From the NCBI RefSeq assembly GCF_003018115.1, contig NZ_CP027457.1: a stretch of 64,000 bases of DNA. One strand, written 5' to 3'. This document shows, one piece after another, positions 5,811 to 57,979 of this stretch (positions are counted from its first letter, which is position 1; each line of letters opens with the position of its first letter). Made by a program: the position numbers and the translations under genes. Origin of the DNA: Escherichia coli (GTDB lineage Bacteria; Pseudomonadota; Gammaproteobacteria; Enterobacterales; Enterobacteriaceae). The notes beneath the pieces were generated by a model that was not told the origin of the DNA, ran no database searches, and saw only the letters and a list, made by a program, of their open reading frames with translations.

Positions 5811-6557
5811 ATGTTGCTTAGCATAATCACTGTCGCGTTTCGTAACCTCGAAGGGATAGTCAAAACACATGCCTCGCTGGCGCATCTGGCGCAGGCGGAC
5901 GATATCAGCTTCGAATGGATTGTTGTCGATGGCGGTTCCAACGACGGTACCCGTGAGTATCTGGAGAATCTCAATAGTATCTATAACCTACGCTTTGTCA
6001 GCGAGCCAGATAACGGTATCTACGACGCCATGAACAAGGGCATTGCGATGGCACAAGGCAAGTTCGCGTTGTTTCTCAACTCGGGCGATATTTTTCATCA
6101 GGATGCCGCAAATTTTGTTCGTAAGTTAAAAATGCAAAAAGATAACGTGATGATCACCGGCGATGCGCTGCTGGATTTTGGCGACGGGCATAAAATTAAG
6201 CGTAGTGCTAAACCGGGTTGGTATATTTATCACAGCCTGCCCGCCAGCCATCAGGCGATATTTTTCCCGGTATCCGGTTTGAAAAAATGGCGTTATGACC
6301 TGGAATATAAAGTTTCTTCTGATTACGCGCTGGCAGCTAAAATGTATAAAGCAGGTTATGCATTTAAAAAACTCAATGGCCTGGTGTCTGAATTTTCCAT
6401 GGGTGGGGTATCAACCACCAATAATATGGAATTGTGTGCTGACGCCAAAAAAGTCCAACGGCAGATATTACATGTGCCTGGCTTCTGGGCAGAATTATCC
6501 TGGCATTTACGCCAACGTACTACCTCAAAGACGAAAGCCTTATATAACAAAAGCTGA
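5811..6557 (+). CDS. wcaE: Colanic acid glycosyltransferase (GT2)
   Basis: 248 aa ORF; conserved position. Confidence 0.85.
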
Positions 6558-9718: not shown

Positions 9719-10938
9719 AAATACTGGTCTACGGCATTAACTACTCGCCGGAGTTAACCGGTATCGGCAAATACACCGGCGAGATGGTGGAATGGCTGGC
9801 GGCACAAGGTCATGAGGTGCGGGTTATTACCGCACCGCCTTACTACCCGCAGTGGCAGGTGGGTGAGAACTATTCCGCCTGGCGCTACAAACGAGAAGAG
9901 GGGGCCGCCACGGTGTGGCGCTGCCCGCTGTATGTGCCAAAACAGCCGAGCACCCTGAAACGCCTGTTGCATCTCGGCAGTTTTGCCGTCAGCAGTTTCT
10001 TTCCACTGATGGCGCAACGTCGCTGGAAGCCGGATCGCATTATCGGCGTAGTGCCAACGCTGTTTTGCACGCCGGGAATGCGCCTGCTGGCGAAGCTCTC
10101 TGGTGCGCGTACCGTGCTGCATATTCAGGATTACGAAGTGGACGCCATGCTGGGGCTGGGCCTTGCCGGAAAAGGCAAAGGCGGCAAAGTGGCACAGCTG
10201 GCAACGGCGTTCGAACGTAGCGGACTGCATAACGTCGATAACGTTTCCACGATTTCGCGTTCGATGATGAATAAAGCCATCGAAAAAGGCGTGGCGGCGG
10301 ATAACGTCATCTTCTTCCCCAACTGGTCGGAAATTGCCCGTTTTCAACATGTTGCAGACGCCGATGTTGATGCCCTTCGTAACCAGCTTGGCCTGCCGGA
10401 TAACAAAAAAATCATTCTTTACTCCGGCAATATTGGTGAAAAGCAGGGGCTGGAAAACGTTATTGAAGCTGCCGATCGTCTGCGCGATGAACCGCTGATT
10501 TTTGCCATTGTCGGGCAGGGCGGCGGCAAAGCGCGGCTGGAAAAAATGGCGCAGCAGCGTGGACTGCGCAACATGCAATTTTTCCCGCTGCAATCGTATG
10601 ACGCTTTACCCGCACTGCTGAAGATGGGCGATTGCCATCTGGTGGTGCAAAAACGCGGCGCGGCAGATGCCGTATTGCCGTCGAAACTGACCAATATTCT
10701 GGCGGTAGGCGGTAACGCGGTGATTACCGCAGAGGCCCACACAGAACTGGGGCAGCTTTGCGAAACCTTTCCGGGCATTGCGGTTTGCGTAGAACCGGAA
10801 TCGGTCGAGGCGCTGGTGGCGGGGATCCGTCAGGCGCTCCTGCTGCCCAAACACAACACGGTGGCACGTGAATATGCCGAACGCACACTCGATAAAGAGA
10901 ACGTGTTACGTCAATTTATAAATGATATTCGGGGATAA
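9715..10938 (+). CDS. wcaI: Colanic acid glycosyltransferase (GT4)
   Basis: 407 aa ORF; conserved position. Confidence 0.85.
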
Positions 10939-10940
10939 TT

Positions 10941-12377
10941 ATGGCGCAGTCGAAACTCTATCCAGTTGTGATGGCAGGTGGCTCCGGTAGCCGCTTATGG
11001 CCGCTTTCCCGCGTACTTTACCCCAAGCAGTTTTTATGCCTGAAAGGCGATCTCACCATGCTGCAAACCACCATCTGCCGCCTGAACGGCGTGGAGTGCG
11101 AAAGCCCGGTGGTGATTTGCAATGAGCAGCACCGCTTTATTGTCGCGGAACAGCTGCGTCAACTGAACAAACTCACCGAGAACATTATTCTCGAACCGGC
11201 AGGGCGTAACACTGCACCTGCCATTGCACTGGCGGCGCTGGCGGCAAAACGTCATAGCCCGGAGAGCGACCCGTTAATGCTGGTATTGGCGGCGGATCAT
11301 GTGATTGCCGATGAAGACGCGTTCCGTGCCGCCGTGCGTAATGCCATGCCATATGCCGAAGCGGGCAAGCTGGTGACCTTCGGCATTGTGCCGGATCTAC
11401 CAGAAACCGGTTATGGCTATATTCGTCGCGGTGAAGTGTCTGCGGGTGAGCAGGATACGGTGGCCTTTGAAGTGGCGCAGTTTGTCGAAAAACCGAATCT
11501 GGAAACCGCCCAGGCCTATGTGGCAAGCGGCGAATATTACTGGAACAGCGGTATGTTCCTGTTCCGCGCCGGACGCTATCTCGAAGAACTGAAAAAATAT
11601 CGCCCGGATATTCTCGATGCCTGTGAAAAAGCGATGAGCGCCGTCGATCCGGATCTTGATTTTATTCGTGTGGATGAAGAAGCGTTTCTCGCCTGCCCGG
11701 AAGAGTCGGTGGATTACGCGGTCATGGAACGTACGGCAGATGCTGTTGTGGTGCCGATGGATGCGGGCTGGAGCGATGTTGGTTCCTGGTCTTCATTATG
11801 GGAGATCAGCGCCCACACCGCCGAGGGCAACGTTTGCCACGGCGATGTGATTAATCACAAAACTGAAAACAGCTATGTGTACGCCGAATCTGGCCTGGTC
11901 ACCACCGTCGGGGTGAAAGATCTGGTAGTGGTGCAGACCAAAGATGCGGTGCTGATTGCCGACCGTAACGCGGTGCAGGATGTGAAAAAAGTGGTCGAGC
12001 AGATCAAAGCCGATGGTCGCCATGAGCATCGGGTGCATCGCGAAGTGTATCGTCCGTGGGGCAAATATGACTCTATCGACGCGGGCGACCGCTACCAGGT
12101 GAAACGCATCACCGTGAAACCGGGCGAGGGCTTGTCGGTACAGATGCACCATCACCGCGCGGAACACTGGGTAGTGGTCGCGGGAACGGCAAAAGTCACC
12201 ATTGATGGTGATATCAAACTGCTTGGTGAAAACGAGTCCATTTATATTCCGCTGGGGGCGACGCACTGCCTGGAAAATCCGGGGAAAATTCCGCTCGATT
12301 TAATTGAAGTGCGCTCCGGCTCTTATCTCGAAGAGGATGATGTGGTGCGCTTCGCGGATCGCTACGGACGGGTGTAA
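10941..12377 (+). CDS. cpsB: Mannose-1-phosphate guanylyltransferase
   Basis: 478 aa; N-terminal nucleotidyltransferase motif [16 protein letters not shown]. Confidence 0.95.
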
Positions 12378-12485
<108 letters not shown>

Positions 12486-12569
12486 TGCGAAACCGAGATG
12501 TAAATAACGACAAAAACAAAATTGGCCGTTTCGGTCAGGGCCAACTATTGCCTGAAAAAGGGTAACGAC

Positions 12570-17048: not shown

Positions 17049-18329
17049 ATGAAATTACTTATTCTGGGCAACCACACTTGCGGCAATCGTGGCGACAGTG
17101 CCATCTTGCGCGGCTTACTTGATGCCATCAACATCCTCAATCCACAAGCCGAAGTGGACGTGATGAGCCGCTATCCGGTCAGTTCTTCCTGGCTGCTCAA
17201 CCGCCCGGTAATGGGCGATCCGCTGTTCCTGCAAATGAAACAACACAACAGCGCGGCGGGCGTTGTCGGGCGCGTTAAAAAAGTCCTCCGTCGCCGCTAT
17301 CAACACCAGGTATTGCTCTCACGCGTCACCGACACTGGCAAGCTGCGTAATATCGCCATCGCCCAGGGATTCACCGACTTCGTGCGCATGCTCTCAGGTT
17401 ACGACGCCATTATTCAGGTCGGAGGATCGTTTTTTGTCGATCTCTACGGCGTGCCGCAGTTTGAACATGCGCTTTGCACGTTTATGGCGAAAAAGCCGCT
17501 GTTTATGATTGGTCACAGCGTCGGCCCCTTCCAGGATGAGCAATTTAACCAACTGGCGAACTACGTTTTTGGTCACTGTGACGCGCTGATCCTGCGCGAA
17601 TCGGTCAGCCTTGATTTGATGAAACGCAGCAATATCACCACTGCAAAAGTTGAACATGGCGTCGATACCGCGTGGCTGGTCGATCACCACACAGAAGATT
17701 TCACCGCCAGCTATGCCGTCCAACACTGGCTGGACGTTGCCGCACAACAGAAAACGGTGGCAATTACCCTGCGCGAACTGGCACCGTTTGACAAACGCCT
17801 CGGCACCACTCAACAAGCGTATGAAAAAGCCTTTGCCGGGGTGGTCAATCGCATTCTCGACGGAGGCTATCAGGTCATTGCGCTCTCCACCTGTACGGGC
17901 ATCGACAGCTATAACAAAGACGACCGCATGGTAGCGCTCAATCTGCGCCAGCACATCAGCGATCCTGCCCGTTACCACGTAGTGATGGATGAACTCAACG
18001 ATCTGGAAATGGGCAAAATTCTCGGGGCCTGTGAACTCACCGTCGGTACGCGCCTGCACTCCGCCATTATCTCGATGAATTTTGCCACTCCGGCAATTGC
18101 CATCAACTACGAACATAAATCCGCCGGGATCATGCAACAACTGGGGCTGCCAGAGATGGCGATTGATATCCGTCATTTACTGGACGGCAGCTTGCAAGCG
18201 ATGGTTGCGGATACCTTAGGCCAGCTTCCGGCGCTGAACGCACGACTTAACGAAGCCGTCAGTCGCGAACGTCAGACAGGAATGCAGATGGTGCAGTCTG
18301 TGCTTGAGCGCATCGGGGAGGCGAAATGA
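17049..18329 (+). CDS. wcaK: Colanic acid pyruvyl transferase
   Basis: 426 aa ORF; conserved position. Confidence 0.85.
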   Translation: MKLLILGNHTCGNRGDSAILRGLLDAINILNPQAEVDVMSRYPVSSSWLLNRPVMGDPLFLQMKQHNSAAGVVGRVKKVLRRRYQHQVLLSRVTDTGKLRNIAIAQGFTDFVRMLSGYDAIIQVGGSFFVDLYGVPQFEHALCTFMAKKPLFMIGHSVGPFQDEQFNQLANYVFGHCDALILRESVSLDLMKRSNITTAKVEHGVDTAWLVDHHTEDFTASYAVQHWLDVAAQQKTVAITLRELAPFDKRLGTTQQAYEKAFAGVVNRILDGGYQVIALSTCTGIDSYNKDDRMVALNLRQHISDPARYHVVMDELNDLEMGKILGACELTVGTRLHSAIISMNFATPAIAINYEHKSAGIMQQLGLPEMAIDIRHLLDGSLQAMVADTLGQLPALNARLNEAVSRERQTGMQMVQSVLERIGEAK

Positions 18330-22277: not shown

Positions 22278-22315
22278 CAGTGCTCTGGTAGCTGTAAAGC
22301 CAGGGGCGGTAGCGT
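22278..22315 (+). promoter_or_regulatory. JUMPstart element containing the ops site GGCGGTAG (22305..22312), RfaH antitermination signal
   Basis: cagtgctctggtagctgtaaagccaggggcggtagcgt read directly, upstream of the first O-antigen gene. Confidence 0.85.
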
Positions 22316-22352
22316 ATTTGCTTATTTTTATCGTGTAATCAAAGTGATTGTT

Positions 22353-42529: not shown

Positions 42530-42577
42530 TTTCTTATTCCTCTTTAAACCTGTCTGAACCGTTATCAACCGCGCAAT

Positions 42578-42610
42578 AAAAAAGCCCCCGGAAGGTGATC
42601 TTCCGGGGGC
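42578..42610 (-). terminator. his attenuator terminator hairpin
   Basis: Minus strand reads gcccccggaag atcac cttccgggggc followed by a U-run, between hisL and hisG. Confidence 0.85.
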
Positions 42611-42674
42611 TTTCTCATGCGTTCATGCACCACTGGAAGATCTGAATGTCTTCCAGCACACATCGCCTGAAAGA

Positions 42675-42725
42675 CTAGTCAGGATGATGGTGATGATGGT
42701 GGTGTTTAAATTGAACGCGTGTCAT
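42675..42725 (-). CDS. hisL: his operon leader peptide, 16 aa with seven consecutive His codons
   Basis: Minus strand atg aca cgc gtt caa ttt aaa cac cac cat cat cac cat cat cct gac tag = MTRVQFKHHHHHHHPD. Confidence 0.95.
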   Translation of the reverse strand: MTRVQFKHHHHHHHPD

Positions 42726-45393: not shown

Positions 45394-45659
45394 AGAAAAA
45401 TTATTATGACAAGCCTCTCATTCTCTTGTCATTTCCCCCCCATTTAGGCACAATGCGCCGCTGTCAAAAAATGACTAAAAACCGACGTTTCATCAGCGTC
45501 GGTTATTTTTTGCTTCAAACCAATCATTCATACCAAGAGGCCGGGCTTCGTACCGGATAGATATTTACTAAAAATCGACAGTTGTTGTCGCTGAGGAATC
45601 CAAAAAAATGGGGCAATTTTTTGCTTACGCGACGGTTATCACCGTAAAGGAGAATGACC

Positions 45660-52131: not shown

Positions 52132-53190
52132 GTGCGTGCCGATAAGTCATTAAGCCCGTTTGAAATCCGGGTATACCGCCATTACCGCATTGTGCATGGT
52201 ACTCGGGTCGCGCTGGCATTCCTGCTCACTTTTCTCATTATCCGCCTGTTTACTATCCCGGAAAGTACCTGGCCGCTGGTCACCATGGTGGTGATTATGG
52301 GGCCAATCTCGTTCTGGGGTAACGTTGTCCCTCGCGCCTTCGAACGTATTGGCGGTACGGTGTTGGGTTCGATTTTAGGTCTTATCGCTCTGCAACTGGA
52401 GTTAATCTCGTTACCGCTGATGTTAGTCTGGTGCGCGGCGGCTATGTTTCTTTGCGGTTGGCTGGCGCTGGGCAAGAAACCGTATCAAGGTTTATTGATT
52501 GGGGTGACGCTGGCAATTGTTGTGGGTTCCCCGACAGGTGAAATTGATACGGCGTTATGGCGAAGCGGCGATGTGATCCTCGGCTCTTTACTGGCAATGT
52601 TGTTTACCGGTATCTGGCCACAACGGGCGTTCATCCACTGGCGTATTCAACTGGCGAAAAGTCTGACCGAGTATAATCGGGTCTATCAATCTGCATTCTC
52701 ACCGAACTTACTCGAACGCCCACGTCTGGAAAGCCATCTACAAAAACTCTTGACCGATGCCGTGAAAATGCGTGGGCTGATTGCGCCCGCCAGCAAAGAA
52801 ACTCGTATTCCAAAATCGATATATGAAGGTATCCAGACCATTAACCGCAATCTGGTTTGTATGCTGGAGTTGCAAATCAATGCATACTGGGCCACGCGCC
52901 CCAGCCATTTCGTGTTATTGAACGCGCAAAAACTTCGTGATACCCAGCACATGATGCAGCAAATACTGCTGAGCCTTGTTCATGCGCTGTACGAAGGTAA
53001 TCCGCAGCCGGTTTTTGCCAATACGGAAAAATTGAACGATGCTGTGGAAGAGCTGCGTCAGTTGCTCAATAACCACCATGACCTGAAGGTTGTGGAAACA
53101 CCAATCTATGGTTATGTGTGGCTGAACATGGAAACGGCGCATCAGCTTGAGTTGCTATCGAATCTGATTTGCCGGGCCTTGCGCAAATAA
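52132..53190 (+). CDS. yeeA: FUSC-family inner membrane protein
   Basis: 352 aa; hydrophobic N-terminal half. Confidence 0.8.
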   Translation: MRADKSLSPFEIRVYRHYRIVHGTRVALAFLLTFLIIRLFTIPESTWPLVTMVVIMGPISFWGNVVPRAFERIGGTVLGSILGLIALQLELISLPLMLVWCAAAMFLCGWLALGKKPYQGLLIGVTLAIVVGSPTGEIDTALWRSGDVILGSLLAMLFTGIWPQRAFIHWRIQLAKSLTEYNRVYQSAFSPNLLERPRLESHLQKLLTDAVKMRGLIAPASKETRIPKSIYEGIQTINRNLVCMLELQINAYWATRPSHFVLLNAQKLRDTQHMMQQILLSLVHALYEGNPQPVFANTEKLNDAVEELRQLLNNHHDLKVVETPIYGYVWLNMETAHQLELLSNLICRALRK

Positions 53191-53361
53191 TTCCTGAACT
53201 TCAGAATCATCTTGCTGCTGCTTCGATTCAGCAAGGATAAAGGGTATGATAGTGAAAAGGGATAAAAGCATTGTCATCTGCGGCAGCTATGAGTAATGTT
53301 GGCCCTAACGAATAGCGGTTGCTTAAACGAATCCGACTCTCACATTATCAGGGGTATAAAA

Positions 53362-53691
53362 ATGGAAACTACCAAGCCTTCATTCCAGGACGTACTGGAA
53401 TTTGTTCGTCTGTTCCGTCGTAAGAACAAACTGCAACGTGAAATTCAGGACGTTGAGAAAAAGATCCGTGACAACCAGAAGCGCGTCCTGTTGCTGGACA
53501 ACCTGAGTGATTACATCAAGCCGGGGATGAGCGTTGAAGCAATCCAGGGCATCATCGCTAGCATGAAAGGTGACTATGAAGATCGCGTTGACGATTACAT
53601 CATCAAAAATGCCGAGCTCTCCAAAGAACGCCGCGATATCTCCAAAAAGCTGAAAGCTATGGGCGAAATGAAAAACGGCGAAGCGAAGTAA
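53362..53691 (+). CDS. yeeX: DUF496-family protein YeeX
   Basis: ORF 53296..53691 trimmed to [14 protein letters not shown] (109 aa). Confidence 0.8.
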
Positions 53692-54149
53692 TTCCTGTTT
53701 TATTCAATGAGGGTTGCCCGGCAACCCTCATTGCTCATTGATTCTTTTCTGTGTATCACAGTCATCATTCCCATCTGATAACCTATCGAAATTAGCGACA
53801 GACATCTTCTGTATGAAGCAAGGCAAAAAGTTCTGCAACTCTATTGTTATTAACCGCACTGGTTACTAACACGTTGTGCGATCCAGCTTCCCGTAACCAA
53901 ACTTTCACCAAAGATATTTCTTCCATGCTGGCTAAATCTGCTTTGGTGACTACTCCAATGATCGGACGTTAACACGAGGAAGTCTGGCTATTCCACAATG
54001 CCATCTTCTTTCGTAATGGATTGAGAATGCTGGATTTTTAATTATATTACGCGCAGTATTAATCGTGTAAATGTTTTGCGGTCAGCAACGGTGGGGGATC
54101 CATTGTTCTGTTCAATGAATACCATCATACAATTGAATCAGGAGTCGGT

Positions 54150-54695
54150 ATGATGATTTTGGTGACGGGGGGCGCACGGAGCGGGAAGAGTCGCCACGCA
54201 GAGGCGCTTATTGGAGACTCTTCACAGGTTCTGTATATCGCCACCTCGCAAATCCTTGATGATGAGATGGCTGCACGGATAGAACATCATCGGCAAGGCC
54301 GCCCGGCGCACTGGCGCACGGTGGAGCGCTGGCAACATCTTGATGAATTAATTCATGCAGACATTAACCCGCATGAAGCTGTGTTGCTGGAATGCGTTAC
54401 CACAATGGTGACTAATCTGTTGTTTGATTATGGCGGAGATAAAGACCCTGATGAATGGGATTATCAGGCGATGGAACAGGCGATTAATGCTGAGATTCAG
54501 TCGTTGATTGCTGCCTGCCAACGTTGCCCCGCAAAGGTTGTATTAGTGACTAACGAAGTGGGAATGGGGATTGTGCCGGAGAGTCGTCTGGCACGTCATT
54601 TTCGTGATATTGCCGGGCGGGTAAATCAGCAGCTGGCCGCTGCGGCGAATGAAGTGTGGCTGGTGGTTTCGGGTATTGGAGTAAAAATCAAATGA
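54150..54695 (+). CDS. cobU: Adenosylcobinamide kinase / adenosylcobinamide-phosphate guanylyltransferase
   Basis: 181 aa; P-loop GGARSGKS. Confidence 0.9.
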
Positions 54696-55435
54696 GTAAA
54701 TTATTTTGGGCGATGCTCTCTTTTATTACGCGTCTGCCTGTGCCGCGTCGCTGGTCCCAGGGACTGGATTTCGAGCATTATTCTCGCGGTATTATTACTT
54801 TTCCTTTAATTGGATTATTGCTTGGCGCGATTAGCGGGCTGGTTTTCATGGTGCTGCAGGCATGGTGTGGCGTACCACTGGCGGCACTGTTTAGCGTGCT
54901 TGTGCTGGCGCTGATGACCGGGGGATTCCACCTGGACGGCCTCGCCGATACCTGTGATGGCGTATTTTCTGCACGTAGCCGCGATCGCATGTTGGAAATC
55001 ATGCGTGATAGCCGTTTAGGCACCCACGGCGGTCTGGCATTGATTTTTGTTGTACTGGCAAAGATTCTGGTGTTAAGCGAGTTGGCTCTGCGTGGCGAAC
55101 CGATCCTTGCATCGCTGGCGGCAGCATGTGCGGTCAGCCGCGGGACTGCCGCATTATTGATGTATCGTCATCGTTATGCCCGGGAAGAAGGGCTTGGCAA
55201 TGTATTCATTGGCAAAATTGATGGGCGACAAACCTGCGTCACACTCGGCTTGGCCGCTATTTTTGCTGCCGTATTATTGCCGGGTATGCATGGTGTGGCT
55301 GCTATGGTGGTGACGATGGTGGCGATTTTCATCCTCGGTCAGCTTCTCAAACGTACGCTGGGCGGGCAAACCGGCGATACGCTGGGAGCTGCTATAGAGC
55401 TTGGTGAACTGGTCTTCCTGCTGGCACTGCTATAA
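54692..55435 (+). CDS. cobS: Adenosylcobinamide-GDP ribazoletransferase (cobalamin synthase)
   Basis: ORF 54656..55435 trimmed to [11 protein letters not shown] (247 aa); ATGA overlap with cobU. Confidence 0.9.
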
Positions 55436-55446
55436 AGAGACGTGAC

Positions 55447-56526
55447 ATGCAAACACTTGCCGATTTACTGAATACGATCCCTGCTATCGATCCTGCCGCT
55501 ATGTCGCGTGCACAACGGCATATTGACGGGTTACTCAAACCTGTTGGTAGCCTTGGAAGGCTGGAGGCGCTTGCCATACAACTGGCAGGAATGCCGGGGT
55601 TGAATGGCATACCGCATGTGGGCAAAAAAGCGGTACTGGTTATGTGTGCCGATCACGGCGTCTGGGAGGAAGGGGTCGCTATTTCCCCAAAAGAAGTGAC
55701 AGCCATTCAGGCTGAAAATATGACCCGCGGAACAACCGGCGTGTGTGTGCTGGCAGCACAAGCGGGCGCTAACGTCCACGTAATTGATGTTGGTATTGAT
55801 AGTGCTGAGCCTATCCCCGGGCTTATCAACATGCGTGTCGCACGAGGTAGCGGCAATATTGCTTCAGCTCCGGCAATGAGTCGCCGTCAGGCTGAAAAGT
55901 TGCTTTTGGACGTCATATGTTATACGCGGGAGCTGGCAAAAAATGGTGTCACGCTGTTTTGTGTAGGTGAACTGGGGATGGCAAACACGACACCGGCAGC
56001 GGCAATAGTCAGCACAATCACTGGCCGGGATCCTGAAGAAGTGGTTGGGATTGGCGCAAACCTGCCAACAGATAAACTGGCTAATAAAATTAATGTTGTG
56101 CGCCGGGCGATTACGTTGAATCAACCAAATCCGCAGGATGGCGTTGATGTTCTGGCAAAAGTGGGTGGATTTGATTTGGTCGGAATGGCTGGCGTGATGT
56201 TAGGCGCTGCTTCCTGCGGTTTACCCGTGTTGCTGGATGGATTTCTTTCTTATGCTGCTGCGCTCGCAGCCTGCCAGATGTCTCCTGCAATCAAACCGTA
56301 TCTCATTCCTTCTCACCTGTCGGCAGAAAAAGGGGCGCGTATAGCGCTGTCGCATTTGGGGCTGGAGCCTTATCTCGATATGGAGATGCGTTTAGGTGAG
56401 GGGAGTGGCGCAGCTCTGGCGATGCCCATCATCGAAGCTGCCTGTGCGATATATAACAACATGGGCGAACTTGCTGCCAGTAATATTGTTCTACCGGGGA
56501 ATACGACTTCTGATTTGAACAGTTAA
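55447..56526 (+). CDS. cobT: Nicotinate-nucleotide:dimethylbenzimidazole phosphoribosyltransferase
   Basis: 359 aa. Confidence 0.9.
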
Positions 56527-57523: not shown

Positions 57524-57549
57524 GAGCGTTGGTAATTAGAAAGCAAAAA

Positions 57550-57573
57550 GCCTGCTAGAAAGCAGGCTTTTTT
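57550..57573. terminator. Hairpin gcctgct agaa agcaggc with T-run, shared by convergent ldtA and tRNA-Asn
   Basis: Perfect 7 bp stem followed by T6 on the plus strand. Confidence 0.7.
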
Positions 57574-57578
57574 GAATT

Positions 57579-57654
57579 TGGCTCCTCTGACTGGACTCGA
57601 ACCAGTGACATACGGATTAACAGTCCGCCGTTCTACCGACTGAACTACAGAGGA
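57579..57654 (-). tRNA. asnV: tRNA-Asn (GUU anticodon)
   Basis: 76 nt; reverse complement reads TCCTCTGTAGTTCAGTCGGTAGAACGGCGGACTGTTAATCCGTATGTCACTGGTTCGAGTCCAGTCAGAGGAGCCA; gene name assigned from K-12 synteny. Confidence 0.95.
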
Positions 57655-57908
57655 ATCGTGTGAACGGGGCGCATATTAATGGCAGTGCATGGTGATGTCA
57701 AAGGGTGAAATGCATTTTTTTGTTTGTTTGCTGTCAATTTCAACAAAGTGATGAGATTTCAATCTTATTGGTAATGAACCATCGTGGTGCATACCCTCCT
57801 TTTATAGGGCAGGGGAACGCGACTGCTGGTGAAAAGAGCCAATGACGAATCTATCATAATCTCTTATTTGACAGTTGGTTAGCTTGTACATCAACGCCAA
57901 AATAAAAC

Positions 57909-57924
57909 TGGCAAGCATCTTGCA
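57909..57924 (+). promoter_or_regulatory. Sigma-54 (-24/-12) promoter candidate for nac
   Basis: TGGCAAGCATCTTGCA fits the TGGCAC-N5-TTGCW consensus, 56 bp upstream of the nac start. Confidence 0.65.
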
Positions 57925-57979
57925 GTCTGGTTGTAAGTAATGGCGGCACTTGGGCCGATTCTCAAAAACCGGAGGCAAC

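Follow-up and report, generated by a model that had tools for sequence, protein, structure and literature searches.

The 458-bp intergenic stretch between tmaR (the current name of yeeX) and cobU, in the 64,000-nt stretch of Escherichia coli DNA analysed here (the window), is very probably a composite produced by gene loss, in which a deletion remnant is joined to the promoter of cobUST and the working parts are limited to the two ends (probability about 0.9). In the list of open reading frames (ORFs), it extends exactly from 53692 to 54149, between the tmaR stop codon (53689-53691) and the cobU start at 54150. It consists of four parts, namely a terminator-like hairpin, the tail of pduV, a deletion junction, and the tail of a 145-aa ORF (ORF145) followed by a 133-bp spacer (Table 1), and pdu+ loci from within the genus account for every base of it. 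The first-pass annotation had reported cobU, cobS, and cobT behind a region without an ORF of 60 aa or more, and had considered this region to be a promoter region or a deletion scar. The longest ORF within the stretch is 51 aa (53714-53869, plus strand) and none reaches 60 aa. The gene order on the plus strand is sbmC, yeeA, tmaR, cobU, cobS, cobT, and ldtA, and the annotation of the matching locus likewise places ldtA next to the three cob genes. Both of the suggested explanations turned out to be correct, since the remnants of pduV and ORF145 meet at a microhomology junction and the cobUST promoter is also present. Annotations or publications already cover all of these elements, namely the yoeF/PduV pseudogene, the remnant named 'cobalamin biosynthesis protein' by PGAP, the cobUST promoter, and the pdu locus, which varies in E. 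coli.

Table 1. Features in and around the tmaR-cobU intergenic stretch (window coordinates)
Feature	Position	Strand	Basis
tmaR (yeeX, DUF496) CDS	53363-53691	+	ORF list; annotated tmaR in PapM-32-1 (identical stretch) and K-12
Perfect 13-bp hairpin with 3-nt loop, probable (inferred) tmaR terminator	53705-53733	+	Folding
3' fragment of pduV, pseudogene equivalent to K-12 yoeF	53792-53961	-	Pfam PF10662, blastn, tblastn
Deletion junction with 7-bp imperfect microhomology	53962-53968	.	blastn of the NCTC9080 locus against the window
Last 17 codons (RTLTRGSLAIPQCHLLS) and stop of the 145-aa CbiG-N-like ORF, a non-functional stump	53963-54016	+	tblastn
Spacer of 133 bp, promoter and 5' leader of cobU	54017-54149	+	Length and conservation
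Sigma-70 promoter of cobUST, TTGAGA-16-TATATT	54021-54048	+	Consensus scan, 10/12 matches
Shine-Dalgarno AGGAG	54140-54144	+	Five bases ahead of the cobU ATG
cobU (54150-54695), cobS (54692-55435), cobT (55447-56526), cobinamide-salvage operon	54150-56526	+	ORF list, annotation of the matching locus

Comparison of the window with the pdu+ locus of strain NCTC9080 by blastn revealed two blocks of homology. Positions 6001-6370 of that locus correspond to 53599-53968 of the window, and positions 24027-24300 correspond to 53962-54235. The left homology reaches 53968, the right homology begins at 53962, and the two blocks overlap by 7 bp. At the junction 53961/53962, the window is without 17,663 bp that are present in NCTC9080. 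In the overlap, the window has TCGGACG, in agreement with the cobU side; the corresponding bases on the pduV side are CCGGGCG in NCTC9080 and CCGGGTG in K-12. The intact order in NCTC9080 is tmaR, the convergent pduV-pduU-...-pduA, pduF, pocR, an annotated cobalamin riboswitch, a 145-aa 'hypothetical protein', and cobUST. The pdu-pocR-riboswitch-cobUST loci of pdu+ E. coli (for example, NCTC9080 and NC101), E. marmotae, and E. albertii share their flanks with the window, which holds on the left the hairpin of tmaR and the 3' end of pduV and on the right the ORF145 tail, the 133-bp spacer, and cobUST, whereas the window is missing the intervening 17,663 bp including the cobalamin riboswitch. 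When 22 pdu, pocR, and ORF145 proteins were compared with the whole 64-kb window by tblastn, only the PduV tail and residues 129-145 of ORF145 were found.

These comparisons point to an ancestral Escherichia order that would read tmaR -> / <- pduV...pduA / pduF -> pocR -> riboswitch -> 145-aa ORF -> cobU cobS cobT. A deletion of 17,663 bp between pduV codon ~91 and codon 128 of the 145-aa ORF, across the 7-bp imperfect microhomology, would have left the tmaR hairpin, a dead 56-codon pduV tail, a dead 17-codon ORF145 tail, and an intact 133-bp spacer. Judged from the sequence, what has been lost comprises the pdu operon together with pduF, pocR, the riboswitch, and the greater part of the CbiG-N-like ORF; nothing resembling cbiP was noticed, and the stretch is probably not a Salmonella-type cbiP-cobU junction. 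The direction of the change, a deletion from a pdu+ ancestor as opposed to a gain of pdu, is inferred from the truncated frames and from the arrangement common to three Escherichia species rather than from a rooted phylogeny.

The pduV part lies on the minus strand and holds pduV codons ~92-147, that is, the last 56 codons, with the stop codon at 53792-53794. Its translation ends in ...IIGVVTKADLASMEEISLVKVWLREAGSHNVLVTSAVNNNRVAELFALLHTEDVCR followed by the stop. The 58-aa minus-strand translation matched profile positions 90-142 of 143 in Pfam PF10662 (PduV-EutP) with an E-value of 2.8e-10 and a score of 40.6 bits (cutoff 21). The fragment showed 91% DNA identity to nt 268-444 of the intact pduV of NCTC9080, and in the tblastn search of Pdu proteins against the window it was detected with an E-value of 7e-29. 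Intact PduV of NCTC9080 is 147 aa long and scores 186 bits on TIGR02528. No complete EutP/PduV protein, which would include the N-terminal P-loop GTPase part in about 147 aa, is present in the window; only codons ~92-147 remain and the frame hits a stop at the junction. The copy in the window is thus a pseudogene fragment and is presumably inert. PGAP labels the same remnant 'EutP/PduV family' in thousands of genomes.

The remnant corresponds to K-12 yoeF (b4538), an EutP/PduV remnant beside tmaR/yeeX. Both lie 100 bp past the tmaR stop, in convergent orientation and in the same frame, and they share the C-terminal sequence ...VIGVVTKADLASME.ISLVK.WLREAG.HNVLVTSAVNNN..., with 92.6% DNA identity between the window and K-12 over the left part of the stretch. 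The two differ in what they adjoin: yoeF is longer by a few pduV codons and continues into the fused sequence of prophage CP4-44, whereas the remnant in the window is cut at 53961 and joined directly to the region upstream of cobU. Nothing about this locus emerged from a literature search for yoeF/pduV and for E. coli pdu pseudogenes. The left side, comprising the tmaR-pduV spacer and the stump (53692-53961), varies by 4-7% among E. coli strains, compared with 0.3-2.6% for tmaR, yeeA, cobU, and cobS, as expected for a pseudogene. Strain GPEC1201 has the same junction, yet 11 of 270 positions on its left side differ from the window, which points to either an old junction or one that recombination has moved.

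A 44-aa minus-strand ORF within the pduV stump (53792-53926) is called as a real CDS by PGAP in some genomes and as a pseudogene in others. PapM-32-1 lists its product as 'propanediol utilization protein', whereas GPEC1201 lists a 'DEAD/DEAH box helicase family protein', and such inconsistency is typical of an over-called fragment. The proper annotation of the region is a pduV (yoeF-type) pseudogene fragment, an ORF145 stump, and the cobUST promoter, not a 44-aa 'propanediol utilization' or 'helicase' CDS. Beyond this correction the finding is of little importance.

On the cobU side of the junction, residues 129-145 of ORF145 were identical (100%) to the translation of 53963-54013 in tblastn. 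PGAP names the ORF 'cobalamin biosynthesis protein'. In NCTC9080 it is 145 aa long, or 168 aa if translation is taken from an upstream GTG. The full ORF of NCTC9080 matched positions 1-125 of 351 in the NCBIfam CbiG model NF004463 (E-value 2.6e-19); its score of 69.6 bits stays below the curated cutoff of 546 bits, so that it is no full-length CbiG match. Pfam gave nothing for ORF145 or its fragments, and the link to CbiG comes from NCBIfam only. An ORF of 144 or 145 aa was found between the riboswitch and cobU in all pdu+ Escherichia examined (23644-24081 of the NCTC9080 locus, 10001-10435 of the E. marmotae locus, and 10001-10435 of the E. albertii locus). Its homologues are confined to Escherichia/Shigella. 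The frame is open in three species, and its dN/dS is 0.32-0.40 compared with 0.02-0.08 in neighbouring genes. ORF145 may be the stump of a cbiG gene in slow decay, or else a small gene under riboswitch control that evolves fast. Together, the ORF145 tail and the genus-conserved spacer explain all 188 bp upstream of cobU.

In Salmonella, cobUST ends a B12-related cluster that lies beside a divergent pdu operon, which stops near yeeX. The cbi-cob operon of Salmonella enterica (cbiA...cbiP-cobUST) has its riboswitch upstream of cbiA, whereas Escherichia carries the CbiG-N-like ORF, and not cbiP, just upstream of cobU. In E. albertii and E. marmotae the order is pdu, pduF, pocR, a 144-aa ORF, cobUST, and ldtA, with no cbi genes. 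Since these two species share the cbi-free order, the cbi-less state predates E. coli, and the scar reflects the loss of pdu, pocR, and the riboswitch and is not a footprint of cbi genes. The orphan state of cobUST in this strain would trace to the loss of that block.

The distribution of the junction was surveyed among 5426 complete E. coli genomes. Megablast split the stretch into two pieces that mostly lie at separate places (median of 2 places). The left ~275 bp carried the label yoeF or 'EutP/PduV family microcompartment system protein'; the right part lay upstream of cobU. About 12% of the genomes (643) keep pduC and are pdu+, and 530 have both sides of the stretch adjacent. Among the latter, 202 carry a longer intermediate form, represented by 19KM1776, which has 410 bp more than the window and joins 99 pduV codons to 111 ORF145 codons. 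The window-type junction is present in about 330 genomes, an approximate figure that agrees with 530 minus 202; a junction probe matched 339 genomes, which include some two-piece matches of the longer form. The remaining ~4250 genomes are counted by subtraction only. PapM-32-1 is identical to the window over the 458 bp. K-12 has the two remnants separated by the 12.7-kb CP4-44 prophage, and in strain 536 a TonB-dependent receptor gene lies upstream of the cobU-side remnant.

Both blastn and an alignment with the intermediate form served to locate the break-points, and this form raises the question of how many steps produced the window. As a variant of the explanation given above, a 17.25-kb deletion may have given the 19KM1776 form and a nested deletion of 410 bp the window form. 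The existence of this form in 202 complete genomes, with a deletion that falls wholly inside that of the window, is in line with such a sequence of events, and on the left side the window differs from 19KM1776 by 11 mismatches but from pdu+ NCTC9080 by 16. However, the right side shows 2 mismatches to both, and the nested end-points fit two independent deletions from a pdu+ ancestor equally well. The two-step origin is thus a serious possibility with a somewhat less than even chance, and the data are compatible with one step as well as with two.

With CP4-44 present in K-12, a different origin can be envisaged, in which an ancestor resembling K-12 imprecisely lost a CP4-44-like island and the state seen in the window would be that of an emptied island site. 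Most genomes do hold the two halves at separate places, and since K-12 keeps slightly more sequence on both sides, an excision that removed the edges could in principle give the window form. However, the sequence variants on both flanks group the window with the pdu+ and 19KM1776 forms, apart from K-12 and 536, which carry islands. Mismatches to the former numbered 11-16 on the left and 2 on the right, compared with 20 and 6-7 to the latter. In addition, no island-derived bases are present at the junction. Island loss is therefore very improbable, and a deletion from a pdu+ locus is the preferred reading.

The first-pass annotation had recognised no B12 riboswitch by eye, and the Rfam searches agreed with it. 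No cobalamin riboswitch (RF00174) was found at E <= 10 in 52500-55500, and none was found by a scan of the whole window at the gathering threshold (31.5 bits for RF00174). The same tool detected RF00174 with 107.8 bits at 23251-23425 of the NCTC9080 locus. Since it scores this highly in a pdu+ E. coli locus, the negative result in the window is meaningful. The search at E <= 10 over the 3-kb region also gave a match of a human lncRNA model inside cobU/cobS, which was rejected as spurious.

The 28 bp of the cobUST promoter are identical in K-12, where TTGAGA-16-TATATT is listed as the constitutive RpoD promoter of cobUST and binding of RNA polymerase holoenzyme to the identical sequence is reported from genomic SELEX (Shimada et al. 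2014, PMC3946193). A promoter scan of the region gave 2 sites compared with 1.6 in shuffled sequences, a count at which a sequence match alone is weak. Since the scan count is not above that of the shuffles, the promoter call rests on the K-12 literature and on conservation. Upstream of the promoter, K-12 retains a longer piece of the ORF145 remnant followed by CP4-44/IS5, whereas here only 59 bp separate the promoter from the pduV stump. In this strain, cobUST would be driven by its own proximal constitutive sigma-70 promoter. Judging from the gene order, read-through into cobUST from an upstream unit under PocR activation, B12 repression, and riboswitch control would be possible in the pdu+ arrangement and would have been lost here.

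The spacer is also 133 bp long in NCTC9080 and E. marmotae. Its Jukes-Cantor (JC) divergence between E. coli and E. marmotae is 0.097, compared with dS values of 0.40-0.51 for pocR, pduF, and cobS; with an intact cobU, it thus diverges 4-5 times less rapidly than synonymous sites do. The divergence rises to 0.27 with E. albertii, in which cobU has lost its ATG. The slow change of the spacer next to an intact cobU and its faster change in E. albertii fit a promoter and leader that are under selection while cobU is used. In the E. albertii locus (10436-11900) the start codon of cobU is CTG, no cobU or cobT gene is called, and cobS is directly followed by ldtA. Cobinamide salvage seems to be decaying in this species although pdu is kept.

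We also considered whether the stretch encodes a further function, such as a 44-aa PduV-tail protein, a small RNA, or a leader RNA for cobinamide induction. The 101-nt leader of cobU (54049-54149) is strongly conserved, with a JC divergence of 0.085 between E. coli and E. marmotae compared with a dS of 0.4-0.5, and the E. coli cob operon is said to have several promoters and to be induced by cobinamide. In some PGAP annotations the 44-aa ORF is a CDS, and a promoter-like site on the minus strand (TTTACA-16-TAATAT, 54071-54044) overlaps the cobU promoter region and points toward the pduV stump and this ORF. This site could be a chance match, as the scan count is no higher than in shuffles. Neither the leader (z = +0.20) nor the whole 458-bp stretch (z = -1.25) folds better than shuffled sequences, which makes a structured RNA unlikely, and no relevant Rfam match was obtained at E <= 10. 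Moreover, nothing else in the neighbourhood is as divergent as the pduV part, and the product names of the 44-aa ORF are inconsistent. A further function is thus highly unlikely; in particular, there is only a slim chance that the leader holds an undescribed element for the induction of cobUST by cobinamide, independent of the lost riboswitch.

At the left end, the first-pass annotation had regarded a hairpin as the probable yeeX terminator. The string it quoted, gagggttgcccggcaaccctc, sits at 53709-53729 and extends to a perfect stem (53705-53717 paired with 53721-53733). The centroid energy of this hairpin is -21 kcal/mol with a z-score of -4.2, and none of 200 shuffled sequences folded as well. 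It begins 14 nt past the tmaR stop, has the G+C-rich stem-loop of an intrinsic terminator, and is kept in K-12, 19KM1776, and NCTC9080. A stem passes the terminator consensus scan only if the next 8 nt contain 5 T or more. This hairpin was not called, since no T-run adjoins its stem; a T-rich run, TTCTTTTCT, starts ~10 nt beyond the stem. The hairpin itself was thus substantiated. Its stem is strong but the T-run is displaced, and it is probably the tmaR transcription terminator.

Several features elsewhere in the window were also noted. Rfam and ARAGORN gave matches at 12516-12565, 22278-22316, 42576-42699, 45439-45513, 57579-57654, 59987-60062, and 61811-61886, which are an algC RNA, a JUMPstart element, a minus-strand His leader, STnc240, and, past ldtA, three tRNA-Asn genes. 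This set is as expected for the normal wca/rfb/his/asn region of E. coli. In K-12, a 16-aa small protein, YoeJ, is annotated between yeeA and tmaR (17428-17478 of the K-12 locus, approximately 53250-53300 of the window). Past ldtA (57524-64000), the window has a tRNA-Asn gene 56 bp downstream, whereas in PapM-32-1 the 6.5 kb that follow ldtA carry sugar-regulator and PTS genes and lack any tRNA-Asn annotation, which indicates that the two genomes differ at the neighbouring asn-tRNA island hot spot.
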